In this document: positions 30,468-62,469 of the stretch, piece after piece
How the letters are laid out: every line of letters begins with the position of its first letter
How positions within the stretch are numbered: position 1 is the first letter of the stretch
Virus record (IMG/VR): IMGVR_UViG_3300042922_001018
DNA length: 64,000 nt
From: a virus
Lineage: Duplodnaviria > Heunggongvirae > Uroviricota > Caudoviricetes
Strand: one strand, 5' to 3'
Position numbers and translations under genes: made by a program
The notes under the pieces: model-generated
Seen by the model: only the letters and a program-made list of their open reading frames with translations
Databases searched by the model: none
Told to the model about the DNA's origin: nothing

Positions 30468-30476
30468 CCGCCTACA
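30468..30476 (+). promoter_or_regulatory. CCGCCTACA box
   Basis: 8 nt before ATG 30485. Confidence 0.75.
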
Positions 30477-30484
30477 CGGTAGAC

Positions 30485-31234
30485 ATGACGACTTCCCCGC
30501 TTTCGCTGTCCGGCATTCAGCCTCGTGACACGCACGGCCGCTTCTCTGAGAAGAGCGGTTCTGCACCCGAGGTCGGCCTCGACACGCCTCCGTCCCCGCT
30601 GGAGGCGAAGAACTTCACGGAGTTCCGCGAGCGGTTCCACAACCTCCCGACGCTGGAGGAGAAGGTCACTGTTGTCGAAGAGCGGTGGGATGCCTGGAGC
30701 CGTCGCGAGCGCATTCAGAACCTCGAAAAGGTCACCAACATCGCTTCCCTCAGCCCGAACTCTCCGCGGGTTCTCGACGAAATCTTCACGGGCGAGTACG
30801 GACCGAAGGCTGACGCAGCACTCGTAGCCAACGACTACCTCGCTGCTGGCGCCCGGTACAAGCTCCTCCTATCGTACCGCGCGAAGGAAGCCGATACCCA
30901 GGAAGAAGCAGACGACCGCGAGCGTGTTCTTCACGCAGCCGCATGGAGCCTGAAGTCACCTCGACACCGGATGGTTCTCGACATGCTTGCGACGGACACA
31001 GACGCTCGTGTCCGCGCCGCTGTCGCTCTGAACCGTCACACGTCTCCGGCGACGTTGGAGAAGCTTGCTCGTGACCCGGATGTCATCGTGCGGGAGCACG
31101 CGGTCTACAACGACTCGACACCCGCCGCGGCGAAGGTGCACACCGCTCTGAGCGTGGACGTTCCACAAGAAGACTACGCTCAACTGAAGCACGCCTTCCT
31201 CGACCGTCACCGCCCCCTCGACGAAGCGGTCTGA
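30485..31234 (+). CDS. Family A protein with LRV/HEAT-like repeats
   Basis: PRDTHGRFSEKSGSAPEV; DARVRAAVALNRHTSPATLEKLARD. Confidence 0.85.
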   Translation: MTTSPLSLSGIQPRDTHGRFSEKSGSAPEVGLDTPPSPLEAKNFTEFRERFHNLPTLEEKVTVVEERWDAWSRRERIQNLEKVTNIASLSPNSPRVLDEIFTGEYGPKADAALVANDYLAAGARYKLLLSYRAKEADTQEEADDRERVLHAAAWSLKSPRHRMVLDMLATDTDARVRAAVALNRHTSPATLEKLARDPDVIVREHAVYNDSTPAAAKVHTALSVDVPQEDYAQLKHAFLDRHRPLDEAV

Positions 31235-31277
31235 GTTACATCTATGTAACATGGGCACCATGTTGCACATTTGTAAC
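31235..31277. promoter_or_regulatory. Tandem AT-rich palindromic operator-like sites
   Basis: GTTACATCTATGTAAC (31235-31250) and GTTGCACATTTGTAAC (31262-31277). Confidence 0.5.
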
Positions 31278-31290
31278 ACAGCTCGTATTG

Positions 31291-31299
31291 CCGCCTACA
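31291..31299 (+). promoter_or_regulatory. CCGCCTACA box
   Basis: 7 nt before ATG 31307. Confidence 0.8.
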
Positions 31300-31306
31300 A
31301 CTGGGC

Positions 31307-31990
31307 ATGACGTTCGATGAGTCCAATGTGCGCCGACACTCTTCTGGGCAGTTCGCCGAGAAGCACGGAAGCGCGCCTGAGCTGACGCTTGGCCAGGACG
31401 GTACGCGCATGCTGGGGAGTACCGTGATGCTGTACGAAGGCAACGGCGTCTACCGCGAAGAGCCGAAGGCCGTGTCGGAAGAGATGCGCGCATACAACCG
31501 CCAGGTAGCTGAAGCGCGCAGGCGCGCAGATGCCGTCGCCGCGCTCTACAACGAAGACATGGAACTCTACGAGCACCTCTCGGCGGATGATGACCAGGAC
31601 ACCATCGACCGGTACCAGAAGATTGCCCAGCAGTACCGCGACATCGCGGCTTTCGAGCGACAGTGGGTTGAGGAGCACGACGGTGAGCTGCCGAGCTTCG
31701 TCCCGAACGAGAAGAAGAGCCGCGAGTTCGCGCGAGCAGTACGTGAACGTTTCGACATCACCCCGGTGCGCTACGTCCAGTTGCTCAACCGTGTACCCGA
31801 TGTCGCTCGCCTTCGGGAGAATCTCATTGAAGATGGCGCGACTGAGAAGTCCGCCGCTCTCGAAGCTATCGTCCAGTTCACGGGTGGCCGTCCTCCACGT
31901 CCGCGCTTCCTGACGAAGCGCCAGCAGGACGAAGACTTCGACCGCTGGGAGTCTCAGCACGAGGCAGAGATGCAGCGAGGTTTCGGATGA
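31307..31990 (+). CDS. Family A protein
   Basis: MTFDESNVRRHSSGQFAEKHGSAPEL. Confidence 0.85.
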   Translation: MTFDESNVRRHSSGQFAEKHGSAPELTLGQDGTRMLGSTVMLYEGNGVYREEPKAVSEEMRAYNRQVAEARRRADAVAALYNEDMELYEHLSADDDQDTIDRYQKIAQQYRDIAAFERQWVEEHDGELPSFVPNEKKSREFARAVRERFDITPVRYVQLLNRVPDVARLRENLIEDGATEKSAALEAIVQFTGGRPPRPRFLTKRQQDEDFDRWESQHEAEMQRGFG

Positions 31991-32355
31991 CCTCCGTGCT
32001 CGACCAGCCGCGCACGCACTCCGGCCGTTTTTCCGTCAAGACCGGAACACAGCCGGAACTTACGCTGCCCATGCTCTCCGGCGGAGACCCGCCACTTCCC
32101 CACACTGACACAGGCGAAGGTCCGGGCGTTCAAGTGTCCGTTGACCTTCGCGGTGGGAACTACAAGCACCCGAAGTTCGGAACGTTCCATCGTGACGGTT
32201 GCGGCGACGCCGTAGACCTGGAACCCCTTGGGGTTGCGCGCACTTACCGCGATGTGCGAGACTTGGCACGCACCCTCGGTCCGAACTTCAACCTCCCCAC
32301 TGCCACCATCAAGCGCAAGTGCGCTGACTGCCTGAAAGCTGCCCTAGGAGACTGA
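31987..32355 (+). CDS. Family A protein with Cys motif
   Basis: PRTHSGRFSVKTG; HRDGC...CADC; ATGA overlap. Confidence 0.8.
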   Translation: MTSVLDQPRTHSGRFSVKTGTQPELTLPMLSGGDPPLPHTDTGEGPGVQVSVDLRGGNYKHPKFGTFHRDGCGDAVDLEPLGVARTYRDVRDLARTLGPNFNLPTATIKRKCADCLKAALGD

Positions 32356-32356
32356 C

Positions 32357-33292
32357 ATGACGTTCGCAGAGACCGACCACCCGCGCGAGAGCGATGGCAA
32401 GTTCGCCGAGAAGACCGGCGCAGCACCGGAGGTAGAGCTGGACGGCTTCCTCCTGTCGCCTGAAGCAGAACCAGTAGACTTCCCGAACGGGCAGCACGTC
32501 CTCTACAAGCGATGGGACGGCGATGCCCCGGCCCGTATCCTTCACGGTGACCCGTACGAGGACACCGGCAACCGTGTCTACACGCTCATCATGGATGACG
32601 GTAACACGTGGTCCGGCGTCTATGCGGAAGAACTCCGAGTTGACCCGAGCGTCGATTCCACCGACTCGATTGCTCGCTCCGCGTCGTTCGATGCCGGATA
32701 CAAGCTGGTCCGCGAGATGACGGACGGCCGGGTCTCCCGTTCGGAGCGTATGCACCTTGTGGACATCGAGGCTGGTATCAACGAGGCCATGAACGAAGAG
32801 TGGCGTAACCAGGCTCTCCGCGGCTTCGCGCGTCTTGGCGAAGAGACCGAAGGCACCGAGGACAAGCACCTCCGAGACATCATCGACGAGGCAGTGGACG
32901 ACGCCCACGCATCGCTGAAGCGTCGCGGGTTCCTGGAAGGCGAGGAGCGGGAGCTGGCGGTCACGCGGCAGACGGCACTGGCGCTGTTCTACCGCAACCG
33001 TATCGACGACTCGTCGGATGACTGGACGCAGGACCACTACGACCACGTGACTCGCGCATGGCGCGAAGCAGTCGGCCCCATCCACCCTGACGACGAAGCC
33101 CGTCCGGCTTCGTGGGACGCGACGCAGCACACCGCGATGTCGCCTGCCCGGAAGTACGAAGACTACAGCGACAAGGAGCTGCGCGAGCAGCGTGACCGCG
33201 CTTGGTCGGAGTACCGCGCAGACGGCGAACCCGGCGCCCGTCGTGCAGCTCAGGTGTTGGACGCTGCGGCCGAGCACCGCGGACTTCAGTGA
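32357..33292 (+). CDS. Family A protein, acidic, multi-module
   Basis: MTFAETDHPRESDGKFAEKTG; AGGAG SD. Confidence 0.85.
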   Translation: MTFAETDHPRESDGKFAEKTGAAPEVELDGFLLSPEAEPVDFPNGQHVLYKRWDGDAPARILHGDPYEDTGNRVYTLIMDDGNTWSGVYAEELRVDPSVDSTDSIARSASFDAGYKLVREMTDGRVSRSERMHLVDIEAGINEAMNEEWRNQALRGFARLGEETEGTEDKHLRDIIDEAVDDAHASLKRRGFLEGEERELAVTRQTALALFYRNRIDDSSDDWTQDHYDHVTRAWREAVGPIHPDDEARPASWDATQHTAMSPARKYEDYSDKELREQRDRAWSEYRADGEPGARRAAQVLDAAAEHRGLQ

Positions 33293-33822
33293 CCTTCGTC
33301 GCGACGGAGCGTGTGAACCCCACTGGGTCCACCGGCCGTGAAGGGTTTGACCCTTCACAACATCCACGGTCATCCTCCGGCCGGTTCACTGAGAAGACTG
33401 GCTCCTTGCCGGAGGTGGAACTCGGCTATCGGTGGAAGGAAATCTGGGAGTTCGATGACGGCTGGACGATGGCTGTCGAGCAGGCGAACAGTTACTACCC
33501 CGAGTTCAAGCGCGGGTGGCTCCGATTGCCAGACGGCACCCCTATCGGCATGATTCACTGGTCCACGAAAGACGCAGAGCCGTGCATCTGCGACATCGAA
33601 GTGCGCGACGAGTATCGCGGGCAGGGCTTGGCGAAGCGGCTCATTCATTCGGTCGAAGACCAGATTGGTGGGCGACTACACACGACAGGTAGCTTCACAC
33701 CGGAAGGCCGCGCCGCGCTGGCAGCCGCCACACCACAGGCCTCAGGGTACCCGGCGAGGCAGCATGATTTCAGGTCGATGACGTTCATCCATGACTGGGA
33801 TGCGCTCCAGACGAACAGCTAA
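33289..33822 (+). CDS. Family A protein with GNAT acetyltransferase domain
   Basis: HPRSSSGRFTEKTG; IEVRDEYRGQGLAKRL acetyl-CoA motif; FTPEG. Confidence 0.8.
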   Translation: MTFVATERVNPTGSTGREGFDPSQHPRSSSGRFTEKTGSLPEVELGYRWKEIWEFDDGWTMAVEQANSYYPEFKRGWLRLPDGTPIGMIHWSTKDAEPCICDIEVRDEYRGQGLAKRLIHSVEDQIGGRLHTTGSFTPEGRAALAAATPQASGYPARQHDFRSMTFIHDWDALQTNS

Positions 33823-33833
33823 GAAGCTCGTTG

Positions 33834-33842
33834 CCGCCTACA
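33834..33842 (+). promoter_or_regulatory. CCGCCTACA box
   Basis: 7 nt before ATG 33850. Confidence 0.8.
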
Positions 33843-33849
33843 TTCGGGC

Positions 33850-34230
33850 ATGACATTCTCCGAGACTGAGGTCCGCCGAGACGCGGGCGGTAAGTTCGCC
33901 GAGAAGCTTGGCGCTTCGCCGGAGGTAACTCTTCCCCCGGCGCCGTTCGAGAGCTACGAGGTACGCGGTGTCAAGCCGGGTGACCTCGTGGACACTGAGA
34001 GCAACACGCACGACGGGCCTTTCGACTTCGCGTTCATGCACAACCGAGCTTTCCGCCAGGCATGGAAGTCTGCGGGGCGTCCGCGCCATCTTCGCGTTCT
34101 ACAGGCGGGCCGAGCGAAAGAGGACGGCCACACGGACAACGCCATCATTTTCGACCTCGGCGGGGAGCCGTTCGAGTTGACTTTCCATCGCGACCGCGAG
34201 ATGCTTGTTTCGCGCCCGAACAAGGAGTGA
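33850..34230 (+). CDS. Family A protein
   Basis: MTFSETEVRRDAGGKFAEKLG. Confidence 0.85.
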   Translation: MTFSETEVRRDAGGKFAEKLGASPEVTLPPAPFESYEVRGVKPGDLVDTESNTHDGPFDFAFMHNRAFRQAWKSAGRPRHLRVLQAGRAKEDGHTDNAIIFDLGGEPFELTFHRDREMLVSRPNKE

Positions 34231-34233
34231 GCC

Positions 34234-35034
34234 ATGAGCTTCAACGAGTCTGAAATCAACCGCGCCACTGACGGCAAGTTCTCCGAGAAGGAGGGCACCC
34301 CGCCTGAGGACGGCTTCGCGAAAGAGCTGGCTGACACTCTCTGGTCCATCCGTGAGCGTGACGCCCGAGAAGGCGTCTGCGGCGTGGACTACGACCACAC
34401 CGAGACCACCACGTATGAGGACGACGAACTCGTTCAGTGGAAGTGCGAAGAGTGCGGTGCGGAGGGCGAAGTTGACCTCACCGAAGAGCCGGGCGACCTT
34501 CTGTCGGGCAAGACGATGGATGACCTGATGGGCCGCACCGCCGACGAGCCGGGCGCTCTGAACGGTTTCCGTCTGGACGACCTCATTATCTACGAAGACG
34601 GCGAAGACGGCGACGATGAGGACGACGACTTCGACATCACCCGCAAGTTCTCGTACCAGCGTTCCTACCCAGGTATGAGCGGCATCCCCGCAACTTCCAC
34701 CAAGCACTGCGCTGAGTGCGGGGACGAGATGCGGGTGAACGCCGAAGGAGTCTCGAACCACATCGCCGCCGACGGCGGCATCGACTACGACAAGGACGCT
34801 CAGCACGCAGCCATTGACGACGCCGCGTACGGCGACGCCGATGAGAGCAATGTGCTCTTCGTTACGGATGACGGGTTCGAGGTTCAGCGTGCCACCGACG
34901 AAGGCTCGTACGCGGTGTACGCGGCTGACGGCACGTTCCTCACGAACGTCACCAGCGCATCGGAGGACCACCTCAGCATCGAGGATGAAGTTCGAGAGCG
35001 TCTGGCAGAGCTGAAGGCCGCTAGCGGACAGTAA
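34234..35034 (+). CDS. Family A protein, very acidic, with CxxC motifs
   Basis: NRATDGKFSEKEG; CEEC, CAEC; AAGGAG SD. Confidence 0.85.
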   Translation: MSFNESEINRATDGKFSEKEGTPPEDGFAKELADTLWSIRERDAREGVCGVDYDHTETTTYEDDELVQWKCEECGAEGEVDLTEEPGDLLSGKTMDDLMGRTADEPGALNGFRLDDLIIYEDGEDGDDEDDDFDITRKFSYQRSYPGMSGIPATSTKHCAECGDEMRVNAEGVSNHIAADGGIDYDKDAQHAAIDDAAYGDADESNVLFVTDDGFEVQRATDEGSYAVYAADGTFLTNVTSASEDHLSIEDEVRERLAELKAASGQ

Positions 35035-35041
35035 CGCTGTA

Positions 35042-35050
35042 CCGCCTACA
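35042..35050 (+). promoter_or_regulatory. CCGCCTACA box
   Basis: 7 nt before ATG 35058. Confidence 0.8.
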
Positions 35051-35057
35051 GACGGTC

Positions 35058-35858
35058 ATGACATTCGCCGAATCTGAGCACCCGCGCGCCACCGACGGTA
35101 AGTTCGCTGAGAAGGTCGGCGCCGCGCCTTCCATCTCGCTGGACGTGAAGCCACCCATCACGGCGAAGGTCGTGCATCAGCAGTGGATTGGCGATTACGC
35201 GGTCGATACCGGCGAGGAGACGGAGTTCGACATCCGGGCGGTTCTCGACGCGGCGCCCCTGGAGGACATTCGCTCGATGGAAAGCTCTGGCGACCGGGAC
35301 TGGCTTCACTTCGATGCTGTCAACGCTGGCCTCATTGAACCCGCCGAAGGACCGTTCTACATCGACACGTTCGCTGCTGAAGAAGACCTCGAAGAGTACA
35401 TCGCGGCTCGCGAGGCGGCAGGCCAGGAAGACCCGGTAGCGGAGCTGGAGCCGTCTCAGAAGCTTGTCCGCGAACGCGTTGGCGCGGCACTCCAGGGCGC
35501 TCGCGGCGCTCTCCCGCTGTCCATCATCACCATGGACGGGAGCGAAGACGGAGACCTCAGCGCAAGCCGCACCGGGCATCTTGTTGCTGACGGCATCCTG
35601 CGGGCGCAGCACTCTTTGAACGCGCTCGCGGTGGACTCCGCACGTCTCGATGAGTCCGACCGTAAGCACCTGTCCGACATCGACCAGCTTCGTGACCTCA
35701 TCAGCTACGACCGTCTGAACCAGGCCACGGTGACCCCGGAGAGCCGACAGAAGGTTGTTCGTATCGTCGCTGGTCTGAACGACTACCTGTGGAACCGTGA
35801 AAACCACCTGTCTCAGCAGGACACGCTCGAATCTCAGCCCGCCGCATCTGTCGAGTGA
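35058..35858 (+). CDS. Family A protein
   Basis: MTFAESEHPRATDGKFAEKVG. Confidence 0.85.
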   Translation: MTFAESEHPRATDGKFAEKVGAAPSISLDVKPPITAKVVHQQWIGDYAVDTGEETEFDIRAVLDAAPLEDIRSMESSGDRDWLHFDAVNAGLIEPAEGPFYIDTFAAEEDLEEYIAAREAAGQEDPVAELEPSQKLVRERVGAALQGARGALPLSIITMDGSEDGDLSASRTGHLVADGILRAQHSLNALAVDSARLDESDRKHLSDIDQLRDLISYDRLNQATVTPESRQKVVRIVAGLNDYLWNRENHLSQQDTLESQPAASVE

Positions 35859-35921
35859 CGACCTTGCTCGTGCAGAGGTAAGCACCCCGCGGAGGCCCGG
35901 CCGCTAGACTGAGGCCTGACC

Positions 35922-36353
35922 ATGACCTTTCTCGTTGACCTTCTCATGCCGAAGCGTCCGCCTCGCGGCGAGCGCGAACCCGGCCTGTCAACCATGGCCA
36001 TCGCCGAAGTCCCTTTCAAGCACGAAAGAAATCGTGACGCATTCGAGCCGTGGGCGCTGCGCCCCGTCATCCACACGCTCCACCCCGTCATCACTCATGT
36101 GACCGATGAGGGAGACCCGCACTGGGAGGTCTGGTTCGTCCACAACAACCGACCGGTTGTTCTCGCGGTCCCTTCTCCCGGCGTCGGGGAACTGTCGATG
36201 GATGACCTCACTGAGTACCTGTCGAAGTCGGTCTCCCATGAACGTCAGGGCACCGCCTCCGCGGATGAGCTGCGGGCTGCGCGTTTCGCCCGCCGCGTCC
36301 GCGAGATGGTGTGCCTGGAGACATGGCCAGAACCACAGCCGCCTACCATTTGA
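35922..36353 (+). CDS. Hypothetical protein (no family A leader)
   Basis: GC3-rich ORF between family A genes. Confidence 0.65.
   Translation: MTFLVDLLMPKRPPRGEREPGLSTMAIAEVPFKHERNRDAFEPWALRPVIHTLHPVITHVTDEGDPHWEVWFVHNNRPVVLAVPSPGVGELSMDDLTEYLSKSVSHERQGTASADELRAARFARRVREMVCLETWPEPQPPTI
36339..36347 (+). promoter_or_regulatory. CCGCCTACC box (variant)
   Basis: 7 nt before ATG 36355, inside the end of the upstream CDS. Confidence 0.7.
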
Positions 36354-36354
36354 C

Positions 36355-37113
36355 ATGACCTTCGACCCGAATGACCACCCACGCTCGACAGACGGCACCT
36401 TCGCAGAGAAGGTCGGTTCGAGCGCGGAGGTGAAGCTCTCCGTTAGTGAGCTGGACCACGGGCTATTCGACGATGTGCGGACACAGGCTGGCGAAGCGTA
36501 CGAGACGTACGGTCGAGCGCTCGCTACCGAGCGTATCCAGCGCAAATACCCGACCGCTGTGCGCGCCACGGTCGCGGTAACCCAACACGATGAGGTCACG
36601 GTCTCTTCTATCGAAGATGCAGACGGCGTACTCCTCTGGGAGGCGAGCGAACTGAACGAAGGCGACGCTATCCACCACGCTGCCGCAAGCATCCCGGCCG
36701 ACGCTGTGCAGAACGGTTCGTACCTCGACCTCGGCGGAACACCTGACTCGCAGGAGGCGTTCACGCACTACCACCGCGCTGCAACTGAGACGCAGGCGGT
36801 CGCGGTGCAGGCGCTAGCGAACAGCATCCGTCTCCGCTTCCCCGAGGCGGTATCGGTGGAGATGGACGCGGACGACGCGGATGACGATGACCCGGACATC
36901 GAGCGCCGCCCGACCGCGGTGTTCAACGCTGCTGGCGAGAAGATGTGGACTTCAGGCTCGGGCGATGAGAGCATCTTCGCTCCCAACAGCCGCGACCGCG
37001 AGTACCTTCAGTACGCGAACTTCGAGTACGACGGTGACACGGATGCGATGGTCGTCCGCCTGCCTGTGAACCTTTTCGATGAGTCCACGTGGCCTGAGTC
37101 CACACCTTTCTGA
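36355..37113 (+). CDS. Family A protein, acidic, internal duplication
   Basis: MTFDPNDHPRSTDGTFAEKVG. Confidence 0.85.
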   Translation: MTFDPNDHPRSTDGTFAEKVGSSAEVKLSVSELDHGLFDDVRTQAGEAYETYGRALATERIQRKYPTAVRATVAVTQHDEVTVSSIEDADGVLLWEASELNEGDAIHHAAASIPADAVQNGSYLDLGGTPDSQEAFTHYHRAATETQAVAVQALANSIRLRFPEAVSVEMDADDADDDDPDIERRPTAVFNAAGEKMWTSGSGDESIFAPNSRDREYLQYANFEYDGDTDAMVVRLPVNLFDESTWPESTPF

Positions 37114-37132
37114 ACCAAGGAGCAACACCAAC

Positions 37133-37954
37133 ATGACTTTCAGCGAGACCGATGTCGTACGCGACGCCGCGGGTAAGTTCTCGGAGAAGACCGGCTCGGC
37201 GCCGGACATCTCAGTGACCCCGCCCAAGAAGACATACATCTACCGCGTGGAAGGCGACGACCACGAGACCGAGGACGTAGAAGCATCCAGCGAGGAAGAG
37301 GCGCTGAACATCGCCGCAGAGCTGTTCGAGGAGCGCTACAGCGGTGACGAAGAAGATGATGACGATGACTCCGAACCGACGGATGTCCGTGACCTTCTGT
37401 TCGTGAAGGCGGTCTACGAAGGCGACATCAACGACTACGACGACGAGTGGACGAAGGTCACGCCGGGCAAGCACTTCCACGACCCGAACTACGAGCATGT
37501 CGCTGGACGATACGCGGGCTACGAGGTGAAGAACTACCGGAAGCTCCCCATCGGGATGGAAGGTGGCGCATTCACCGCGAGCATCTGGCGTGACGGCAAG
37601 CGTGTCATGCTTGTCGAGAACGCGGGCAACGGCGGCGCGAACACGTACACTGACCTGAGCAGCCCGAAGACCCCGCTTCGGCACCGTGGCGAAGAGATTG
37701 ACCGCTTCAAGAAAACCGCAAGCGCCATGTACGGCCCGGACAAGTACGAGAGCGATGATGCGCTCTTCGCGTTCGTGCAACTCGGTAGCGAGGTTGACCG
37801 CTTGGCCCGCATCAACGGTTGGTCGCGTACAGAGACCGCCGAAGCGATGGCAGAGGACTACGAGAAGCAGATGGCCGAGTTCGGAAGCAAGGCGGATGAA
37901 GTTGAACTCGCGGCGCTCCGCGACCCGTCCATCATCTCGCGCCTGACCGACTGA
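37133..37954 (+). CDS. Family A protein, acidic
   Basis: MTFSETDVVRDAAGKFSEKTG; AAGGAG SD. Confidence 0.85.
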   Translation: MTFSETDVVRDAAGKFSEKTGSAPDISVTPPKKTYIYRVEGDDHETEDVEASSEEEALNIAAELFEERYSGDEEDDDDDSEPTDVRDLLFVKAVYEGDINDYDDEWTKVTPGKHFHDPNYEHVAGRYAGYEVKNYRKLPIGMEGGAFTASIWRDGKRVMLVENAGNGGANTYTDLSSPKTPLRHRGEEIDRFKKTASAMYGPDKYESDDALFAFVQLGSEVDRLARINGWSRTETAEAMAEDYEKQMAEFGSKADEVELAALRDPSIISRLTD

Positions 37955-37993
37955 TTTTCCACGACCTACCACGGCCAGTGGTAGACTCTTAGA

Positions 37994-38692
37994 GTGACCC
38001 GGAAAATCCTGACTGCCATCGGTGCGGTATTCGTGTTGTCTGGACTCGGTCTCCTCAGCTTCCTCGGCGTCGGGTTCTTCGCGGACCAGAGCGAGCTTGA
38101 CCAGAAACAGCAGGACACGCAGGCGCTCATCCAGGAATGGGACGGTGGTTCGGCTACCCGCGTTGACACCGCGCCGACTGGTGACATCCCCGTTACCACG
38201 CGGCCAGCTACCTACGACGAGTTCGGCGTTCTCTATGTCCCGCGATGGGGCGCAGACTATGTCGCGCCCATCCTCGAAGGCGACAAGACGAAGGAAGTCT
38301 CTTCGTGGCACGGTGTTGACCACTACCCGAGTTCGCAGATGCCGGGAGAGCTGGGCAACTTCGTCGTCACCGGCCACAACGGCCGGAACGAGACGGGGCG
38401 CTTCTCTCACCTGTCGCAGAGCGAAGTAGGCGACCTCGTCTATGTCGAAACCGCAGACGGTTGGTACACCTACAAGCTGACTTCGTTCGAGACCATCGAC
38501 CCGTCCGAGAACGAAGTGCTTCTCCCCGTCCCTCGTGAGGAAGGCGTCGCGCCTACGAAGAGCGTCATCACGCTCATTTCCTGCACGCGCGAATGGTGGG
38601 GAACCACCGGGCGTTACGTTGCCTACGGCGACTTCGTAGAGTTCACCCCGCGCGCGGCGGGCGCCCCTGCCGATGTAACGGCGATGCGTTGA
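37994..38692 (+). CDS. Sortase (class E-like)
   Basis: N-terminal TM; NFVVTGH; TLISC; downstream R. Confidence 0.9.
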   Translation: MTRKILTAIGAVFVLSGLGLLSFLGVGFFADQSELDQKQQDTQALIQEWDGGSATRVDTAPTGDIPVTTRPATYDEFGVLYVPRWGADYVAPILEGDKTKEVSSWHGVDHYPSSQMPGELGNFVVTGHNGRNETGRFSHLSQSEVGDLVYVETADGWYTYKLTSFETIDPSENEVLLPVPREEGVAPTKSVITLISCTREWWGTTGRYVAYGDFVEFTPRAAGAPADVTAMR

Positions 38693-42087: not shown

Positions 42088-43800
42088 ATGACGAACCCCG
42101 CACCAGCCACCGGACTCCAGCGCCTCAAAGTGACCGCGCCGAATGGCATCAGCCTGGGCAACAAGTCCCAGATTGACAAGCTCATCGGAGTCGTGGAGAA
42201 GACGCATGGAACGGGCTGGCGCCTCGCATCGGTAGACGAGGAGAACCGCCAGCTCCACCTTACGCGTGTCTCCGAAGTGGTCAACCTGAAGAAGTCCGAG
42301 ACTCGCAAGGACGCCTTCGATGTGTCCCTGCCCCGTGAGTACAAGGCATCCGATGCCGAACGTGCCGCGGCCGAGCTGGAATCGAATCCCGACTACGCAG
42401 GGTATGTCATGACGGACTTCAACCCATTCCTTCACGTGGCTACTCTCACCCGTCTCTCGAAGGAAGAAATCGTCGCGCGCGGCTACCTTGCGCAGACGCT
42501 CGGCGTCAAGCCGTGGGACATCCAGGTGCAGTCCACCGCAGTAGGTGGATACGCGGTCAAGCTGCCTCGCCAGTACGTCCCGGCGAAGCATGACGACAAG
42601 CTCACTGAGGTCGTCGAGACAGCCGTCGGTGCGCCCGGCTGGTACATCCAGTTCAACCCGAAGGAACGCACCGCGGAAATCATCCCCGGCGACCTTCCGA
42701 CGTTCCCGGCCATGATTCCCTTCCCGCTCGCGAAGGCTCTGAAGTCTGGGGACAACGTATTGCAGTTCGGCGAGCGCCTCGGCCCGAACTCGAACTCGCC
42801 CGGTGGCCCCGCCATCATCGACTTCGACAGCGCGGCCCACAGTCTCCTCTCCGGTACATCCGGCTCGGGTAAGACGGTGACCATCAACGGCATGATTACG
42901 TGGCAGCTCCTCACCGGCCACGAACTCGTTGTCATCGACTTGCCGCACAAGGCGGTGGACTTCACGTGGTGCCGCGAGTTCGTACGCGACGGCGGCTGGG
43001 GCTGTGACTCGCTGGAAGCCAGCGTGGCAGCTCTGGAAATGGTGTACCGCGAGGGCATGGAGCGCGCGAAGATTCTGAAGGAACACGATGTCACGAAGGT
43101 GGATGAGCTGCCGAAGCACCTTCGGATGAAGCCCATCTTCGTCGTCGTGGACGAGCTGAGCGGTCTGCTCATCCTTGAAGAGGTGCCGAAGGGTCTCGCG
43201 AAGGACAACCCGATGGTGCTGGAAGCGAACCGTATCAACCTGCTGAAGCAGACGCTCCTGAACCGCATCAAGAAGATTGCGGCCGAGCTGCGATTCGTGA
43301 AGATTCGCCTCCTGCTCTCATCCCAGGTCTCCTCGACCGATACGGGCGTCCCCACATCCCTGCGCATGAACCTGGCGAACAAGATGCTTCAGGGCACGAA
43401 CCCGACGGACAACAACCGTCGCCTCGCGCTCTCTGACGCTCTCTCCGTACCGAAGGTGCCGACCCACGTCCGTGAAGACCCGAAGGCCGGTAAGGGTGTC
43501 GGTGTGGCCGAGCTGGAGGGTCAGACGCCTGCGGTGTACAAGGGCTACTACGCTCCTGTCTCCGAGTACAAGAAGGCTATCGAAGCGCGCGGCTGCAAGA
43601 AGACGATGCGCCCTGCTCCGACTCCGGAAGAGATTGCTCGCTTCACGCCGAGCATCGACGAGGAAGACGCGGCGAAGGGCTTCGGACGCCAGAAGCGCAC
43701 GCTAGAGCCGTGGGAGATGGACGCGGACGGCAGGCCGTTGTCCGGCTTCGAGCGCGCGAACGCAGCGAAGCACGCCGCGACGGTCGGCGCCCGCGGCTGA
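42088..43800 (+). CDS. FtsK/SpoIIIE-domain ATPase (no obvious TM)
   Basis: GTSGSGKT; VVVDE; ELRFVKIRLLLSSQ. Confidence 0.85.
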   Translation: MTNPAPATGLQRLKVTAPNGISLGNKSQIDKLIGVVEKTHGTGWRLASVDEENRQLHLTRVSEVVNLKKSETRKDAFDVSLPREYKASDAERAAAELESNPDYAGYVMTDFNPFLHVATLTRLSKEEIVARGYLAQTLGVKPWDIQVQSTAVGGYAVKLPRQYVPAKHDDKLTEVVETAVGAPGWYIQFNPKERTAEIIPGDLPTFPAMIPFPLAKALKSGDNVLQFGERLGPNSNSPGGPAIIDFDSAAHSLLSGTSGSGKTVTINGMITWQLLTGHELVVIDLPHKAVDFTWCREFVRDGGWGCDSLEASVAALEMVYREGMERAKILKEHDVTKVDELPKHLRMKPIFVVVDELSGLLILEEVPKGLAKDNPMVLEANRINLLKQTLLNRIKKIAAELRFVKIRLLLSSQVSSTDTGVPTSLRMNLANKMLQGTNPTDNNRRLALSDALSVPKVPTHVREDPKAGKGVGVAELEGQTPAVYKGYYAPVSEYKKAIEARGCKKTMRPAPTPEEIARFTPSIDEEDAAKGFGRQKRTLEPWEMDADGRPLSGFERANAAKHAATVGARG

Positions 43801-44318: not shown

Positions 44319-45083
44319 TCAGTCGATACGACGGTAGACGGTCTCGACGCCGTATTCAGACTTCGAGCTGATGACGATGTCGCCGCCACGGTCGAAGACT
44401 TCGTCGTCCGGGGTGATGGTCGCCTCGGAGCCGCTGTCCCACTTGATACGACCGTTCTTCGAAGAGACAACAGTACGGTCGTCCGCCATGCGAGCGGAGA
44501 CGCCACCGTTACGGTAGGTCTGTGTCGCCACGTCGTACCCAGCCTGTGAGACGACAGCGAACTTGGCACCCGGTTCGAAGCGACGGCCAGCTTCCGCCTT
44601 CGAGAGTGGCTTGTCGATGCGCTCGCGGTAGACGTAGTGGCTCGCGTCGGAGTAAAGCACGATGAGCGGGAGGTCAAGGCGCGCGGTCTTGAAGCCCTGA
44701 CTGGTCACCCAGTCGCCGTAGTTGAGGTCGTTCCACAGCTCTCCCGCAGGAATCGGCTCACCGATGTGCTCACCGCGCGCATTCAGCTCGGTCCAGTTCT
44801 CGTTGTCGAACTTCTGGTATCGGACCGGCTTCGGGTTCTCCACCTTGGGGTCAACGACGGTCAGGACAGAGGTACGAGGCGCGTCGAAAAACTCATCGTC
44901 GTCCGCTGGCTGAAGCGGAAGATACGGCCGCATCGGGCGGTCCCCACGGTCGAGGTCATTGTCCCAGCGGCTTGAAGCCCACGGGTTACCTGATGCGGCA
45001 AGGCTCACTTCAGGGGTGCCGCCAACCTTCTCCGAGAAGCGTCCAGCGTTATCTCGGGATACGTCCAGCTCATTGAAAGTCAT
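44319..45083 (-). CDS. Family A protein
   Basis: MTFNELDVSRDNAGRFSEKVG. Confidence 0.85.
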   Translation of the reverse strand: MTFNELDVSRDNAGRFSEKVGGTPEVSLAASGNPWASSRWDNDLDRGDRPMRPYLPLQPADDDEFFDAPRTSVLTVVDPKVENPKPVRYQKFDNENWTELNARGEHIGEPIPAGELWNDLNYGDWVTSQGFKTARLDLPLIVLYSDASHYVYRERIDKPLSKAEAGRRFEPGAKFAVVSQAGYDVATQTYRNGGVSARMADDRTVVSSKNGRIKWDSGSEATITPDDEVFDRGGDIVISSKSEYGVETVYRRID

Positions 45084-52877: not shown

Positions 52878-53282
52878 ATGACCTCGTATCAAGAACGCAT
52901 CCGGTCTGAGTTCCCCGGCTTGTACTCCAGCTCGCTGGCGCGTGTCATCCAGGCCGAAACCGTCCCCGAAGACTACCTCCGCGTCTTGCTTCTCGACGCG
53001 GACGAGTTCTTCGACACGATGGTCATTGCTCTCGTAGCGCCGCAGTGCGCGGCGGCGGGAGTCCCAGCCGAGTATCTCCGTGACACCTGGCGGCTGCCTT
53101 TCTCCGGCGGTCAGGACGACGGCATGCCGGAACGACTCATCGAGCTCTATGCCGCCGGAGTACCCAGAGAATACGCGAGCCAGCTATCGCACCCGAGACG
53201 AGACGTAGGCGACATCATCTCTGCGTGGTCTGCGGGACTGGCGCCGGAGTACGCAGAAGAACTCTGGCGGGCAGTCGGTTAA
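52878..53282 (+). CDS. Family B protein
   Basis: GVPAEYL, GVPREYA, AWSAGLAPEYA. Confidence 0.85.
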   Translation: MTSYQERIRSEFPGLYSSSLARVIQAETVPEDYLRVLLLDADEFFDTMVIALVAPQCAAAGVPAEYLRDTWRLPFSGGQDDGMPERLIELYAAGVPREYASQLSHPRRDVGDIISAWSAGLAPEYAEELWRAVG

Positions 53283-53752
53283 GCCGCGGCTGGGTCGGCG
53301 TACTTCGAGCGGTCGAGAGTACGGTGCTTGTCGCTCCGCCGGTTCACCCAGTTGGTGACGATAGTCCATGGCTGCTTCTTGTGCTCGCCGGGTCGCATGA
53401 CCATCACGATGTCGTCCTGGTTGCTTGACGGGTGCGGGACGCGGACAAGCAGCTTCGAGACTCGCCCTCCCGAAACAGACACCTCGATGACCTGGCATTC
53501 GCGCAGGTCTACCTTGTCCAGCTTCGGGATGTAGTTGTACCGGTCGTTCTCACGCTCTCGGTCGGCGTGGCCGGTGTATTCGCAGAAGATTTCACGCTGA
53601 GGCACAGTCACATTCGAGGGGATGCCGATGTCACGGTGATACGTGATTTCGTCGGCGGGCTTCTGGAACAGAGCGACCTCCGGCTGTGAGCCGACCTTGT
53701 TGTCGAAACGTCCGTCAGTCTGACGCCGGACATTGGCCTCGTTGAATGTCAT
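53279..53752 (-). CDS. Family A protein, possible RNase-like cargo
   Basis: RRQTDGRFDNKVG; YTGHADRER...IVTNW. Confidence 0.8.
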   Translation of the reverse strand: MTFNEANVRRQTDGRFDNKVGSQPEVALFQKPADEITYHRDIGIPSNVTVPQREIFCEYTGHADRERENDRYNYIPKLDKVDLRECQVIEVSVSGGRVSKLLVRVPHPSSNQDDIVMVMRPGEHKKQPWTIVTNWVNRRSDKHRTLDRSKYADPAAA

Positions 53753-55458: not shown

Positions 55459-55467
55459 CCGCCTACA
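55459..55467 (+). promoter_or_regulatory. CCGCCTACA box
   Basis: 7 nt before ATG 55475. Confidence 0.8.
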
Positions 55468-55474: not shown

Positions 55475-56263
55475 ATGACCTTCGACTCATCTCAACATCC
55501 GCGCAACACGGACGGTAAGTTCTCTGAGAAGGTCGGTTCACAGGCCGAAGTATCGCTTCCGGCTGCCCAGAAGCCGGATACGCTCGTCCAAGATGTCAAG
55601 GACGCCTGGGATGAACGACACGCGAAGAAAGCCGACATCTCCTTCCGTATCGAAGAAGCAACCGCTGTCATGCGCTCCTCGCAATGGCACCCGGCCATGC
55701 CAGACATGGGCGACAGTCGTGAGAAAGACAAGTACCTCTCGGCGGAGTATCGACTAGCGGAAGCTCTCGCTGAACGTGACGCCAGCCGGATGCTCGTGGC
55801 TCGCGCTGTAGGTACAGCAGGGAAATCGACGGGAAGCGTTGAAGCGGGGGTTGTCGGCGGGACCGGTAATGCGCTCGCATCTCTCATCTCCCTGCCTCGC
55901 ACGCTGAAGATGTTCCGCCTGAAGCGGCTTGCGGCGCGGCATCCGGAGCTACGAGAGCTGGACGCAACTGTGAACTCGCGGCCGGAGACTCGACGCGAGC
56001 TTATCGACAGTCGCGCCGCCGCCTTCGCTCGCGAGAACGGCAGGCCGGACCCTGCGCAGTTCGCGGCCTGGCTGCGAGACTTCTACCGGCTGGACTTTCC
56101 CATGGACGCGAACGCTACCCCGCAAGAGCGCGCAGTTCGCCGGGACGCAGAGCTGACCCGCGCCAACGTCCTTCCCGCTGCGCGTGAGGCGTACTTGTCG
56201 AATGACCCGCAGCGGTACATCGACGGCCTTGACCCCCGGAGGACGGACCTCAACCAGTGGTAG
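55475..56263 (+). CDS. Family A protein
   Basis: MTFDSSQHPRNTDGKFSEKVG. Confidence 0.85.
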   Translation: MTFDSSQHPRNTDGKFSEKVGSQAEVSLPAAQKPDTLVQDVKDAWDERHAKKADISFRIEEATAVMRSSQWHPAMPDMGDSREKDKYLSAEYRLAEALAERDASRMLVARAVGTAGKSTGSVEAGVVGGTGNALASLISLPRTLKMFRLKRLAARHPELRELDATVNSRPETRRELIDSRAAAFARENGRPDPAQFAAWLRDFYRLDFPMDANATPQERAVRRDAELTRANVLPAAREAYLSNDPQRYIDGLDPRRTDLNQW

Positions 56264-56264: not shown

Positions 56265-56273
56265 CCGCCTACA
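56265..56273 (+). promoter_or_regulatory. CCGCCTACA box
   Basis: 7 nt before ATG 56281. Confidence 0.8.
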
Positions 56274-56280: not shown

Positions 56281-56907
56281 ATGACTTTCAACCCGACCGA
56301 ACACCCGCGCGCGAACGACGGCAAGTTCGCCGAGAAGCTCGGCTCCGCCGCCGAGGTATCCCTCGATGCTGGTCCGGACTTCGAGAAGCTTGCCGCGAAG
56401 GCGAACCGCGCCGGGAAGCGCTCCGGCGACAAGCGTCTTGACATCACCGATGGTGACGCCGCCCTTGTCGAAGAGCTGACCGCAGCGCTGCGCGACCCTC
56501 GTGTCCCCGAGTCCGTGTTCGATGCAGCGGCGACGTTCGCCGAGCGGCTCGAAGATGCCAACTTCCACAGCGCTGTCCGCCGCCTGGACGCGGCGGTCGG
56601 TGAAGCTGCGTACCGTTCTGACCCGAGTGCTCCGGTCAAGAACCCGGCTGCTGTCATGCAGGCGTCTGCTGACATGGACCTTGTCCGCACGGCCGCTGAC
56701 CAGTACGGCTCTCGGATTCACCAGACCTACCTGGAGACACAGGACGCGGCTACCGCTGCTGAATGGGCGCAGGAGCGTATCGACAACAATCTGGTCTTCA
56801 ACCCGAACCTGGATGAGGAACTTGCTCGCGAGCTTCACGGGCGAGTAACCGGCTGGCGCCGCAGCGAACTTCTGGCGAACCCGAGCCTGCCCGCAGACCT
56901 TCGCTGA
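56281..56907 (+). CDS. Family A protein
   Basis: MTFNPTEHPRANDGKFAEKLG; LRV-like C-terminus. Confidence 0.85.
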   Translation: MTFNPTEHPRANDGKFAEKLGSAAEVSLDAGPDFEKLAAKANRAGKRSGDKRLDITDGDAALVEELTAALRDPRVPESVFDAAATFAERLEDANFHSAVRRLDAAVGEAAYRSDPSAPVKNPAAVMQASADMDLVRTAADQYGSRIHQTYLETQDAATAAEWAQERIDNNLVFNPNLDEELARELHGRVTGWRRSELLANPSLPADLR

Positions 56908-56929: not shown

Positions 56930-56938
56930 CCGCCTACA
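56930..56938 (+). promoter_or_regulatory. CCGCCTACA box
   Basis: 7 nt before ATG 56946. Confidence 0.8.
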
Positions 56939-56945: not shown

Positions 56946-57998
56946 ATGACTTTCGACTCCGCTGCTCACCCCCGCGCTACCGATGGCACCTTCGCTGAGA
57001 AGGTAGGCGCAAGCCCCGAAATCGCGTTGCCACAGGACGAAGGTCTCCACGTCATCGGGCTACCGCGCGATGAAGGCATGGGCATCATCTACACCGACCT
57101 CGACGTTCTCCAGTACGCGAAGGACTACTACGAAGAGGACTGGGAGACCAGCGAAGACCGCGAAGCCATCCTTGCTGAGCGCCGTGACGAGTACCTGACG
57201 TACCGCCAGACGACCAATGGCATCGAGGAAGCCGCTCGCTACTTCAACTCCGGTGCCAAGGAGACCGTTCTGGACGGCGATGAAGAAGTGGAACTCGCAG
57301 ACCTGCCCGCTACCGTCCGCCACAACGCTATCGAAGCGGCGCTCGCCGTTGAGGCAGACGACGTGGAAGGCATCCGCGCCATTTACGCGCTCGGCGAGAA
57401 CGCTTCCGACGAATGGAACGACCACGAGTTCGGCGGCGAACTGGCCGACATCATCGGGACGAAGATTCTCACCGACCCGCTGAAGCTCCCCCGCGACGAT
57501 GAAGGACGCCCGGTCTATGACTTCGAAGGCGTAGCCCAGCGCGAGAAGTACCACCGTGCCGCGAAGGCATCCCTGGAGGTGCTTGCATCGGGCGCGAAGA
57601 TTCCTGCGAACCTTGACCACTGGGGACGTGTGTACTGGGCCGCTGAAGAGAAGCGTACTCCCGCTGAACTTGCGAAGGTACTCCTCACCGAGTCCGAAGG
57701 CGAGTTCGCTCGCGTCATCCTCGACCACAAGAAGGTCACGCCTGAGATGGTCACGTACGCCGCCCGCTCGAACGATGGTGCCGTACAGCACGCCGTTATC
57801 CAGCACCCGAAGGTCACAGCCGCCGCTCTCCGGGAGGTGCAGGCTCGCGTCGAACGCGACTACGCTCACGCCACCGACCCGCTGAACGCGTGGGGCACGA
57901 TGAAGTCGTACTACGACCAGTCGGCCGCGCAGGCATCACGCTTCATGGGCTACATCTCGGATGCACGTGGGCGTCTCGGCGCCGACGGCGCATGGTAA
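56946..57998 (+). CDS. Family A protein
   Basis: MTFDSAAHPRATDGTFAEKVG. Confidence 0.85.
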   Translation: MTFDSAAHPRATDGTFAEKVGASPEIALPQDEGLHVIGLPRDEGMGIIYTDLDVLQYAKDYYEEDWETSEDREAILAERRDEYLTYRQTTNGIEEAARYFNSGAKETVLDGDEEVELADLPATVRHNAIEAALAVEADDVEGIRAIYALGENASDEWNDHEFGGELADIIGTKILTDPLKLPRDDEGRPVYDFEGVAQREKYHRAAKASLEVLASGAKIPANLDHWGRVYWAAEEKRTPAELAKVLLTESEGEFARVILDHKKVTPEMVTYAARSNDGAVQHAVIQHPKVTAAALREVQARVERDYAHATDPLNAWGTMKSYYDQSAAQASRFMGYISDARGRLGADGAW

Positions 57999-59661: not shown

Positions 59662-60198
59662 CTAGGCTGGGATGTACCGGCCGGTGACCTCGAAGGTCTG
59701 ACCGGTCAACGGCGCGAGAGCCGCAATCCATCGAGCCGCGGTGTGCTCTCCCGGCTGGATGTACGCCAGCGTGACGTGCGGCGTGTACGCCGGGAAGCAG
59801 TCGATGTGAGGCAGCAAGCGCAGCCGGTCATGGCCTTCCTCCAGGTTCGCGGTGACCACGAGCTTCGCTACGACACAAGAGAACTCAGGGGTCGGGAAGA
59901 CGTGGATACGCTCGACTGTCACCGGCTCCGGTGTCCACCCCTCCAGCACACGGTCCACGTGGGCAGCGGGCACGGTCTCCAGAATGCCCTGATGCAGGGT
60001 GAGATGCGCGGAGGTCTCCGCCACCGCGCCCTGCGCGTACCGTGTCTTGTGCGTCGTCCCGAAGAACAGCTCGTCCGGCCCGTCGATGTAAGCGCTGACC
60101 GGGATGTTCGCAACATCCAACATGATGGCATCCAGGCTGTATAGGTCGATGCCGACCTCAGGGTAGATGTCTTCGTGGTCGAACGCAGAGAACGTCAT
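59662..60198 (-). CDS. 2H phosphoesterase (Acb1-like candidate)
   Basis: Two HxT motifs: AHLTL and YTPHVTLAY. Confidence 0.8.
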   Translation of the reverse strand: MTFSAFDHEDIYPEVGIDLYSLDAIMLDVANIPVSAYIDGPDELFFGTTHKTRYAQGAVAETSAHLTLHQGILETVPAAHVDRVLEGWTPEPVTVERIHVFPTPEFSCVVAKLVVTANLEEGHDRLRLLPHIDCFPAYTPHVTLAYIQPGEHTAARWIAALAPLTGQTFEVTGRYIPA

Positions 60199-60235
60199 GC
60201 GCTCATCATAGCGCAGAAATCACTGCCGCGCACAT

Positions 60236-61267
60236 TCAGCGGGCGTCGAACCCTTCGACGCGCTTCACGTAATCCTGGTAGTGCGATGCCTGTGTCTCGG
60301 TGAGCTTCGAGAGGTCAACACGCTTCGTCATGCCGCCCCAGCCATCCGGCACGTCACGTACGGCGCCGGGGACCGTGAGAAGCTGCTGCTTGAACTCGGT
60401 GAACCCGGCCTCGACCTCTTCCGGTGTCGCCTGCCAACCCAGGTCGTAGACCGACTGGTAGTTGATACGGGGAGCCTGCGTGAATGTGGAGCCAGGCTTG
60501 AAGTCGCCGCTCAGCTCTACCGCGGGGACATTCCGGATGCGCTCGAAGGACTGGTCATCCCCACGGTCGCGAGCGACCTCCAGAGCCTTCTGGACGGCCT
60601 CTTCGCGCTGGTCGAGTGGGAACACCCAGTCGTTCACAGGACGGCCGTCTGGGGTCTTGTAGCGCGAGACAGACTCGATACCGAGTGCCGTGCTGCCGTG
60701 GTTACCGCCCATGCCGTACGTGCTCACCGCATACACCGGCTCTTCCGCCTTCGTCCAGACCTCGTCGCCGAGAACGAAGAGCTGGTTCGCACGAGTCTGA
60801 ATGTCCATCGCTACGCCCGCGGGAGTTCCCTCATCGGAGTAGGGGCCGCGCCAGCCGCCTTCGAACATGCTCTTGATGTCGTCCGCCGAGGTCTTCGACT
60901 TCACGTACAGCTCGCCGTTGTGAACGCGGTACTCGCCCGGCGTGAACTGGTCACCGTTGAACGAGATGGCGACCGGCGCGTCGTCGTCGCCGAGAATGGA
61001 GACAGTAGCCTCCAGGTCAATCGTGCGTTCGATGTCACGCGGCTTGCGAGCGCGGGGCGGGATGACATTGCGTTCCGTCCAGTTGACGGTCAGCGGGACA
61101 ATCAGTTCCGGCTCGTATGGGCCACCGAGGGAGAGTTCCGGAGCTTGTGGACGGTCCCCGTCCACTGCGCGCAGCGATTCGCTAAGCGATATCTCTGCCG
61201 CCGACCCCTGCTTCTCCGAGAAGCGGCCGATGGTGTCGCGCTGGATGTTGGTCTCGTTGAACGTCAT
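60236..61267 (-). CDS. Family A protein
   Basis: MTFNETNIQRDTIGRFSEKQG. Confidence 0.85.
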   Translation of the reverse strand: MTFNETNIQRDTIGRFSEKQGSAAEISLSESLRAVDGDRPQAPELSLGGPYEPELIVPLTVNWTERNVIPPRARKPRDIERTIDLEATVSILGDDDAPVAISFNGDQFTPGEYRVHNGELYVKSKTSADDIKSMFEGGWRGPYSDEGTPAGVAMDIQTRANQLFVLGDEVWTKAEEPVYAVSTYGMGGNHGSTALGIESVSRYKTPDGRPVNDWVFPLDQREEAVQKALEVARDRGDDQSFERIRNVPAVELSGDFKPGSTFTQAPRINYQSVYDLGWQATPEEVEAGFTEFKQQLLTVPGAVRDVPDGWGGMTKRVDLSKLTETQASHYQDYVKRVEGFDAR

Positions 61268-61274
61268 GCCCAGA

Positions 61275-61283
61275 TGTAGGCGG
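61275..61283 (-). promoter_or_regulatory. CCGCCTACA box, within an inverted repeat
   Basis: 7 nt before ATG 61267; TAGGCGGAG 61277-61285 pairs with CTCCGCCTA 61302-61310. Confidence 0.8.
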
Positions 61284-61316
61284 AGATGTAACCCAGATAG
61301 GCTCCGCCTAGGCCGG

Positions 61317-62027
61317 TTACGACTCGCGCTTGTGCTTGCGCAGCTTCCGCGACGATGTCAGCGTGACCTGACCTCCGCACTCCGGGCACGTTCCCCAGTT
61401 GCCGGAGTAGTACCCGACACGGTGCGGCTTCTCCCGGTCCAGGTTCGAGCCGGTTCCGGGGCACACGGACTCATCCACTGGCTTCGTGGTCAGTTCCGTT
61501 GGCGCGCTCGGGAAGCAGATGGTGCAGAGCGTCGCGCCGTGCTCTTTCACTGCTTCCGCCTCCGTCAAACCGGAGACGTTCGGGAGCCACGAGACTCGCG
61601 TCGTCGGGCGGAACGAAGAGCAATACTGCGAGCTGTGGATGTGCTCGACCAGGAAGAAGCGATTCCAGCCCTTGTACAGCTCCTTGTCGAGCTTCTCGGC
61701 TTCGACACGGAACGGGGCAGCCTCTTCAAGGAGCCGGTCGGATTCCTTGAACTGCGCGTCGATGCGAGGGATGAGACGCTCACGGGCAGTGGCCGAATAC
61801 TGCCCCAGTGTCTTACGGGTCTTCGTCGCAGACTTGTACAGTGCTGCGGCCTGGTCCCGAATGTCGTAGTAGGCGTTCCATGTTTCAGCGATACGGGTGT
61901 CCGCATCTCGCGCGGCAGCAATCTCAGTCGCGCGGTCGGTAGCGAGATTCAGCTCCGGCGCAGACCCGAGCTTGTCAGCGAACCGTCCGACAGTGTCGCG
62001 GTTATGCTCGGTCTCGTTGAATGTCAT
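61317..62027 (-). CDS. Family A protein with Cys/His zinc-binding-like cargo
   Basis: HNRDTVGRFADKLG; HIHSSQYC..CTICFPSAP; CPG..CPEC..H. Confidence 0.85.
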   Translation of the reverse strand: MTFNETEHNRDTVGRFADKLGSAPELNLATDRATEIAAARDADTRIAETWNAYYDIRDQAAALYKSATKTRKTLGQYSATARERLIPRIDAQFKESDRLLEEAAPFRVEAEKLDKELYKGWNRFFLVEHIHSSQYCSSFRPTTRVSWLPNVSGLTEAEAVKEHGATLCTICFPSAPTELTTKPVDESVCPGTGSNLDREKPHRVGYYSGNWGTCPECGGQVTLTSSRKLRKHKRES

Positions 62028-62469
62028 GCCCGGATGTAGGCGGGTTCCGAGACACGCGAACGGCGAAAAGGATACCGAGGACCGTGCCCATCAGAGGCAA
62101 CGTTCCTACGATGAGAATGACAAGATGCGGAAAGAACTCGAAGCTGGAGGAGTCATAGTACGGGCTGCCTTGTCCTACGACAACATACGAGTAGAGCGCC
62201 GCAGTCGCAGTGTTCACGCCGAGGTAGGACAGGACGCCAGACCAGCCTAGTTTTAACGACGGGTACAGGAACAGTCCCGCGAATACGGTCTCAGCGACAA
62301 TACCGTAAAGTAGGACGTTGCCAAAGCCGACCCAGATATCTTCAGGTAGACCTTGGGTAGCTGTACCCGCAGTGCCATTGCCAAGCCAGTATGCGTTAGC
62401 GATAACGGATGCAGCCGCCGCCGATACGGCAAACACCACGCTGGACAGGAAGAGAACGAGAAACTTCAT
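62002..62469 (-). CDS. Multi-TM membrane protein (tandem paralog)
   Basis: ANAYWL; LKLGWSGVLSYL; lower GC. Confidence 0.7.
   Translation of the reverse strand: MKFLVLFLSSVVFAVSAAAASVIANAYWLGNGTAGTATQGLPEDIWVGFGNVLLYGIVAETVFAGLFLYPSLKLGWSGVLSYLGVNTATAALYSYVVVGQGSPYYDSSSFEFFPHLVILIVGTLPLMGTVLGILFAVRVSRNPPTSGHDIQRDRA
62035..62043 (-). promoter_or_regulatory. CCGCCTACA box
   Basis: 7 nt before ATG 62027. Confidence 0.8.

Follow-up and report, generated by a model that had tools for sequence, protein, structure and literature searches.

Seventeen unrelated proteins share an N-terminal tag

In a 64,000-nucleotide stretch of IMG/VR virus record IMGVR_UViG_3300042922_001018 (the window), which sits on a 450,372-bp soil metagenome contig, a sequence-only reading had listed 17 genes as sharing one N-terminal peptide. 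That reading proposed the peptide as an address label that loads a variable effector library into a delivery device, either the conjugation machinery of the element or a capsid. The tag, about 28 residues long, is present on 17/17 of the listed genes at the starts given for them (Table 1). In the alignment of the 17 tags R-x3-G-x-F-x2-K-x-G is invariant, with the five residues R, G, F, K, and G the same in 17/17. A six-frame scan of the window with R-x3-G-x-F-x2-K returned 19 matches, namely these 17 genes and two antisense frames (from 11310 and from 23978) in which the rest of the tag is missing, while shuffled N termini of the 65 called genes gave a mean of 0.003 matches. The start at 33289 is correct, a GTG that overlaps the upstream stop and opens an extended tag. 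This extended tag before the GNAT gene (33289-33370) is partly duplicated; database proteins P0050, P0075, and P0077 have the extension as well.

Beyond residue 32 the bodies are unrelated, as had been claimed, with a best E value of 0.023 in an all-versus-all comparison. Homology past the N terminus was not seen, and on this ground we rejected a family of full-length paralogs. The tagged window proteins are 122-350 aa long with at most one recognized domain each. GNAT (E 8e-8) and LRV (E 9e-7) domains are among the cargo, and no tagged window protein contains a hydrophobic 19-residue stretch, in line with the earlier statement that membrane segments are absent.

Nucleotide identity within the tag is 0.60, 0.69, and 0.43 at codon positions 1, 2, and 3, and the invariant R and G use all four codons. 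Because third positions vary the most, we conclude that the tag is conserved at the protein level; the same pattern led us to reject a pure DNA repeat or recombination site. An N-degron was rejected because the Phe is not terminal in the stand-alone forms. In the model of the 62027 protein, residues 1-30 have pLDDT values below 50, as opposed to 77-98 for the helices that follow, which suggests that the tag behaves as a linear motif. No Pfam, PHROG, or NCBIfam family covers the tag in the window proteins and no PDB match was found, so that a well-characterized domain was not encountered in these libraries. Paper searches of the open-access literature likewise returned no published description.

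An upstream box marks the tagged genes

A box, CCGCCTAC, lies 8 or 9 nt before the ATG in 12/17 tagged genes (0.01 expected by chance) and before none of the untagged genes of the window. The other five each follow another tagged gene, with an overlap of its stop or a gap of 0-19 nt. For many untagged window genes the element at about this distance is an ordinary extended -10, and the presence of two kinds of -10 so placed suggests leaderless promoters of two kinds. The box is probably the leaderless-type promoter of the tagged genes. In related metagenome loci (224 kb), 51 of the 57 box-bearing genes carry a strict tag and four more a degenerate one, a count that is partly selected because these loci were retrieved by the box-plus-start pattern. 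The pattern had 0 matches in viral and genome contigs.

In the complete plasmids zg-Y1110 and pACHL01 the same -10-like box also precedes untagged genes. A -35-like element accompanies it in 42/62 untagged same-box genes of zg-Y1110 and 34/56 of pACHL01, compared with 1/31 and 2/23 tagged genes, respectively (p 5e-10 and 2e-5). Since the -35-like element is largely confined to untagged same-box genes, the tagged genes form a separate promoter class.

Tags in related plasmids

In three complete Micrococcales plasmids, plasmid-specific profiles gave about 60 tags (pS16), 43 (zg-Y1110), and 47 (pACHL01); degenerate tags in the complete plasmids were missed by the first profile and were found through the box scan. 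Between R and G-x-F the loop is of variable length, with a dominant form that differs from plasmid to plasmid. Of the plasmid tags, 58-78% have a second box, [ED]..[VIL]-x-L, compared with 0/54 and 1/126 copies in phages (1/180).

In the Bifidobacterium megaplasmid pMP7017, six annotated or open genes share a leader that ends in R-x3-4-G-x-[FY]; their bodies are unrelated. The first profile missed these leaders, and the link is post hoc because they came from a looser pattern search; the profile match between leader and window tag is weak (P 51%, E 1.5e-4). An LPD28 cluster of 336 aa, which came up as a low-scoring Atlas lead (0.76), agrees in size and domain with one of the leader proteins. 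The published pMP7017 regulon motif stands directly before one leader gene, and it also stands at the head of a gene run that includes two more. The last part of this 34-bp motif, a CCACAT element, resembles the box found in the Micrococcales plasmids, a likeness that hints at a homologous plasmid-specific regulator.

The tag core in tailed phages

The sequence-only reading mentioned similar peptides in phage-associated proteins, and such peptides do occur there. The window tag profile matched 545 cluster representatives. Among the best 150 of them, 111 are small N-terminally tagged proteins; the other 39 are giant proteins in which the core is repeated internally. One of these is encoded within a portal gene block and has ART-PolyVal. 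At 39 viral loci the motif is on proteins that match portal, minor head, head morphogenesis, or head protease families, or starts small genes. In the cultured Pseudomonas phage Orisa03, gene 4 has the motif between its portal and ADP-ribosyltransferase domains. Aligned with each other, the window and phage profiles match with P 98.9% and E 3e-17. A tblastn search of cultured phages with the tag gave no match, and the two large actinophages tested, E3 and Alice, have no convincing motif.

In the giant phage proteins the tag matches no more than short stretches of longer PHROG profiles, for example phrog_15528 and phrog_30637. The five residues before each copy are alike within a giant protein (0.34 versus 0.11 between proteins and 0.09-0.10 at control positions). 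These residues may be protease sites that free modules headed by the motif, and internal duplication could contribute to the likeness.

Cargo

Membrane segments occur in 0/114 tagged proteins versus 17/134 proteins of untagged same-box genes (p 2e-5), and the tagged bodies are more acidic. Eight Pfam families were recognized among 93 tagged proteins, most of which have no annotation. The named tagged cargo of the relatives includes ArdcN with MPTase-PolyVal, LPD29, LPD28, and a ParB-like nuclease, and the window adds GNAT. By domain content, this named cargo fits the early-invasion roles that PMC5512222 gives for polyvalent proteins.

One tagged protein, conserved in three plasmids, has a weak match to sigma-70 region 2 (E 3e-4). 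It is a candidate for the reader of the -35-less promoters or for a factor delivered to start transcription. By eye, the sigma-like tagged proteins (L087:17317-18351 in pACHL01, L075:8045-9064, and L043:5272-6309) have region-2 and region-3-like segments and no obvious region 4. In the window, 29182-30405 was considered as a sigma factor and rejected, with no Pfam or PHROG match.

The sequence-only reading had suggested looking for untagged cargo in actinophages, and the 62027 gene provides a case. Microbacterium phages encode its body without the tag at 50-57% identity (51-57% in Honk, Zeta1847, and Rie18); the tag stands in place of the phage start, and a further homolog carries another variant of the tag. 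The 61267 body is tagged in the window and in pS16 and untagged in the other two plasmids. Together, these two bodies indicate that the tag is portable.

The element resembles a conjugative megaplasmid

The VirB4-like protein of the window shares 42-45% identity with proteins encoded on plasmids of 375-608 kb from Curtobacterium, Arthrobacter, and relatives; its identity to the protein of pMP7017, a conjugative megaplasmid (PMC10832533), is 27%. VirB4 relatives were not found in genome or viral contigs. Four ATPases (VirB4-like, coupling-protein-like, and two FtsK-like) have homologs in all four plasmids compared, and the common backbone also includes a helicase. The relaxase-like gene has homologs in the three Micrococcales plasmids; a PDB fold search with its model gave weak nuclease matches only. 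Genes for type IV and Tad pili, for DnaE, and for a sigma factor are also present on pACHL01. Each of the three Micrococcales plasmids has 37-42 tRNA genes, and the plasmid family carries nucleotide-metabolism genes, which like the tRNA arrays are a phage-like feature.

Profiles for Terminase_6N, Phage_capsid, and Phage_portal had no match in five complete relatives, and Terminase_6C had none in four, with control genomes positive in both cases. No head genes or prohead protease were detected in the complete relatives or in the 64-kb window, and no terminase, portal, or capsid gene is among the conserved core genes of the plasmid family. The element is best read as a conjugative megaplasmid of an actinobacterial family, although a very divergent virion is possible.

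Table 1. Tagged genes and transfer-related genes of the window
Coordinates	Strand	Product	Start or upstream box	Remarks
30485..31234	+	tagged, 249 aa, LRV/HEAT repeats	box 30468-30475, 9 nt before ATG	
31307..31990	+	tagged, 227 aa	box 31291-31298	partial DUF3263 match
31987..32355	+	tagged, 122 aa	start overlaps upstream stop, no own box	operon member
32357..33292	+	tagged, 311 aa, acidic	ribosome-binding site	operon member
33289..33822	+	tagged, 177 aa, GNAT acetyltransferase	GTG start overlaps upstream stop	extended tag
33850..34230	+	tagged, 126 aa	box 33834-33841	
34234..35034	+	tagged, 266 aa, acidic with Cys/His pairs		operon member
35058..35858	+	tagged, 266 aa	box 35042-35049	body homolog, tagged, in Arthrobacter zg-Y1110 plasmid
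36355..37113	+	tagged, 252 aa	box 36339-36346	
37133..37954	+	tagged, 273 aa, acidic		operon member
44319..45083	-	tagged, 254 aa	box 45092-45099	
53279..53752	-	tagged, 157 aa	box 53761-53768	body matches phage family phrog_24108 (E 3e-29)
55475..56263	+	tagged, 262 aa	box 55459-55466	
56281..56907	+	tagged, 208 aa	box 56265-56272	
56946..57998	+	tagged, 350 aa	box 56930-56937	
60236..61267	-	tagged, 343 aa, DUF8359	box 61276-61283	
61317..62027	-	tagged, 236 aa, Cys/His protein (phrog_2433)	box 62036-62043	
9101..11623	+	coupling-protein-like ATPase		homologs named 'type IV secretory system conjugative DNA transfer family'; candidate tag reader
12264..13595	+	relaxase-like protein		model resembles Replic_Relax cluster (TM 0.48/0.60); adjoins coupling-protein-like gene
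16862..21121	+	FtsK/SpoIIIE-family ATPase, 1419 aa		backbone
26474..29065	+	VirB4-like ATPase (AAA_10)		
42088..43800	+	second FtsK-like ATPase, 570 aa		backbone

Several other features accompany these genes. A conserved 183-aa gene (45205-45756) lies near tagged genes in the window, pS16, zg-Y1110, and pACHL01; its product, a possible adaptor, had no Atlas or PHROG match. The window also encodes a large LRR/fibronectin-III surface protein (38782-41994) that may serve mating-pair contact and, before it (37994-38692), a membrane-anchored product with a pMP7017 homolog, possibly a sortase. Several untagged small genes (465-8000 and 51881-54268) end, by eye, in a similar P-x-E-Y-A-like tail that may be a second shared module. 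A Nudix-like regulator, a YitT membrane protein, NAMPT, and a phosphoribosyltransferase at 62885-64000 and L150:3760-9143 make up an NAD-salvage block, such as phages employ to counter NAD-depleting defences. RNA ligase and 2H phosphoesterase genes (54265-54903 and 59662-60198) suggest RNA repair. Contig depth is flat (358-960) over window positions 25001-45000 in three soil runs from 2025, possibly the samples from which the contig came.

A proposed delivery header and its alternatives

The proposed address label gains from the constancy of the tag, the variable soluble cargo, the co-regulation, the polyvalent domains, and the phage head-module core; delivery itself is the part that we infer. 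Judged from these sequence features, the reading we lean toward, at a little short of even confidence, is that the tag is a header for proteins that are delivered together with mobile DNA into the next host cell, here by conjugation. The mating channel would be the simplest route because a conjugation machine is present and head genes were undetected, and conjugation systems do move plasmid proteins (PMC8406263, PMC11288057). The second box, found in plasmids only, and the plasmid-specific drift of the tags suggest a reader encoded by the plasmid. More tentatively, and with the balance tipped somewhat against it, the plasmid family may have taken over a phage head-cargo header, added the second box and a private promoter, and come to load tens of effectors, including the sigma-like factor, into the mating channel; in that case a single family of signals would serve virion ejection as well as conjugative protein delivery.

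In a delivery mechanism of the first kind, a sigma factor encoded by the plasmid would recognize the box as a promoter that consists of a -10 only, and the donor would make all cargo at the same time. The two-part tag, that is, the core R...G-x-F and the plasmid-only [ED]..[VIL]-x-L, would then be bound by a plasmid protein, either the coupling protein or an adaptor. Once in the recipient, the cargo could blunt defences or redirect transcription ahead of plasmid gene expression, and the plasmid would gain new cargo when the box-plus-tag cassette is grafted to the start of genes it has captured.

Several points weigh against delivery by conjugation. The translocation signals reported for the F system are diverse and sit at the C terminus or internally, rather than forming a uniform N-terminal motif (PMC11288057). 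The core also occurs in tailed phages, which have no coupling protein, and it therefore cannot be specific to the conjugation machine. The pMP7017 leader is only weakly linked to the tag, and the search for virion genes covered the window and the complete relatives, not the remaining 386 kb of the contig.

The tag could instead act inside the cell, docking cargo on DNA, RNA polymerase, or the ribosome, or setting its lifetime through a protease or chaperone, with the tagged genes forming an early regulon in the new host. We consider this unlikely but worth serious attention. A universal host partner, or DNA, would suit the occurrence of one core in plasmids and in phages of many phyla; modules fused to the portal are held in the head in any case and would need no loading signal; the low pLDDT of the tag is as expected for a linear motif; and leading-region genes of F are expressed early in recipients, according to the consulted part of PMC9849209. 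Such a role leaves unexplained, however, the exclusion of membrane proteins, the plasmid-only second box, and the drift of the consensus, and the presence of the phage motif in head-module genes points to proteins made before transfer. Rather improbable, in our judgment, is loading into phage capsids, whether those of phages that infect the plasmid-bearing cell (as hitch-hiking or sabotage) or those of an unrecognized virion of the element. The closeness of the window tag to the phage motif, the stand-alone N-terminally tagged small genes in viral contigs, the actinophage origin of some cargo, and the phage-like features of the family all agree with it, and it would gain weight if the three soil runs were viral fractions. 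An element-encoded capsid, one of the devices named in the sequence-only reading, is nevertheless disfavored by the lack of a terminase, portal, or capsid match in the complete relatives and of any such gene in the conserved core. In addition, the tags of pACHL01, zg-Y1110, and pMP7017 have drifted to plasmid-specific consensuses, as would suit a plasmid-encoded reader, and E3 and Alice have no convincing motif.

The box and tag adjoin and move together, and the DNA repeat covers both, as would be expected if the tag were a passenger of a promoter-plus-start cassette that recombines before captured genes and aids leaderless translation, with no role at the protein level. The codon pattern largely refutes this, third positions being the most variable; five window genes are tagged and have no box, the motif lies deep inside phage polyproteins, and a related box is used by many untagged genes. 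We regard such a passenger as very improbable.

If the delivery reading is true, the tag would bear on how conjugative elements and tailed phages select the proteins that travel with their DNA, hundreds of unannotated genes would become candidate anti-defence or host-takeover proteins, and the tag might serve as a protein-delivery label for actinobacteria. Bifidobacterium breve with pMP7017 and P. chlorophenolicus A6 with pACHL01 are cultured strains that make the tag directly testable.

Comparison with known systems

Polyvalent proteins, described for phages and conjugative elements with ArdC-N as a proposed header (Iyer et al. 2017, PMC5512222, in the parts consulted), are similarly early-invasion effectors proposed to travel with DNA, and they have ArdC-N, MPTase, LPD28, LPD29, GNAT, and ART in common with the tagged cargo. 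In polyvalent phage proteins the tag core separates the modules. As with the carriers of polyvalent proteins, our element has VirB4-like, coupling-protein-like, and relaxase-like genes. Whereas polyvalent proteins, as those parts of the paper describe them, join 2-15 disparate domains, the window effectors come from individual single-domain genes, each of which bears a 28-residue tag of its own, and they have a promoter in common. The consulted parts of PMC5512222 do not mention the motif.

Like conjugative type IV secretion of pED208/F, in which proteins reach the recipient in a coupling-protein-dependent manner (PMC8406263, PMC11288057), our system has a coupling-protein-like and a VirB4-like ATPase on the element. 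The pED208/F signals differ in being C-terminal or internal with no common motif, and the tens of substrates have no dedicated tag or regulon. The likeness to pMP7017 extends to homologous transfer ATPases, a tRNA array, a plasmid-specific upstream motif (the 34-bp regulon motif, PMC10832533), and a shared leader. Its leaders, however, number only six and are weakly similar, its promoters are not leaderless, and the term 'N-terminal' is not mentioned in PMC10832533.

Effectors fused to portal or MuF proteins in tailed phages, such as gene 4 of Orisa03, have the same core motif, but the phage copies continue into a Gly-rich linker and the plasmid tags into the second box. Internal proteins of phage T4 carry an N-terminal capsid-targeting sequence of about 10 residues that is cut off by the prohead protease. 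Both this sequence and our tag are short N-terminal peptides on unrelated proteins, which in T4 are delivered with the genome. The two sequences are unrelated, however, our element has no detectable head genes, and the putative cut in phage polyproteins falls ahead of the motif. Within the libraries searched the present tag appears to have been previously uncatalogued, and it would belong to a known kind, that of cargo tags such as the T4 targeting sequence and the ArdC-N header.

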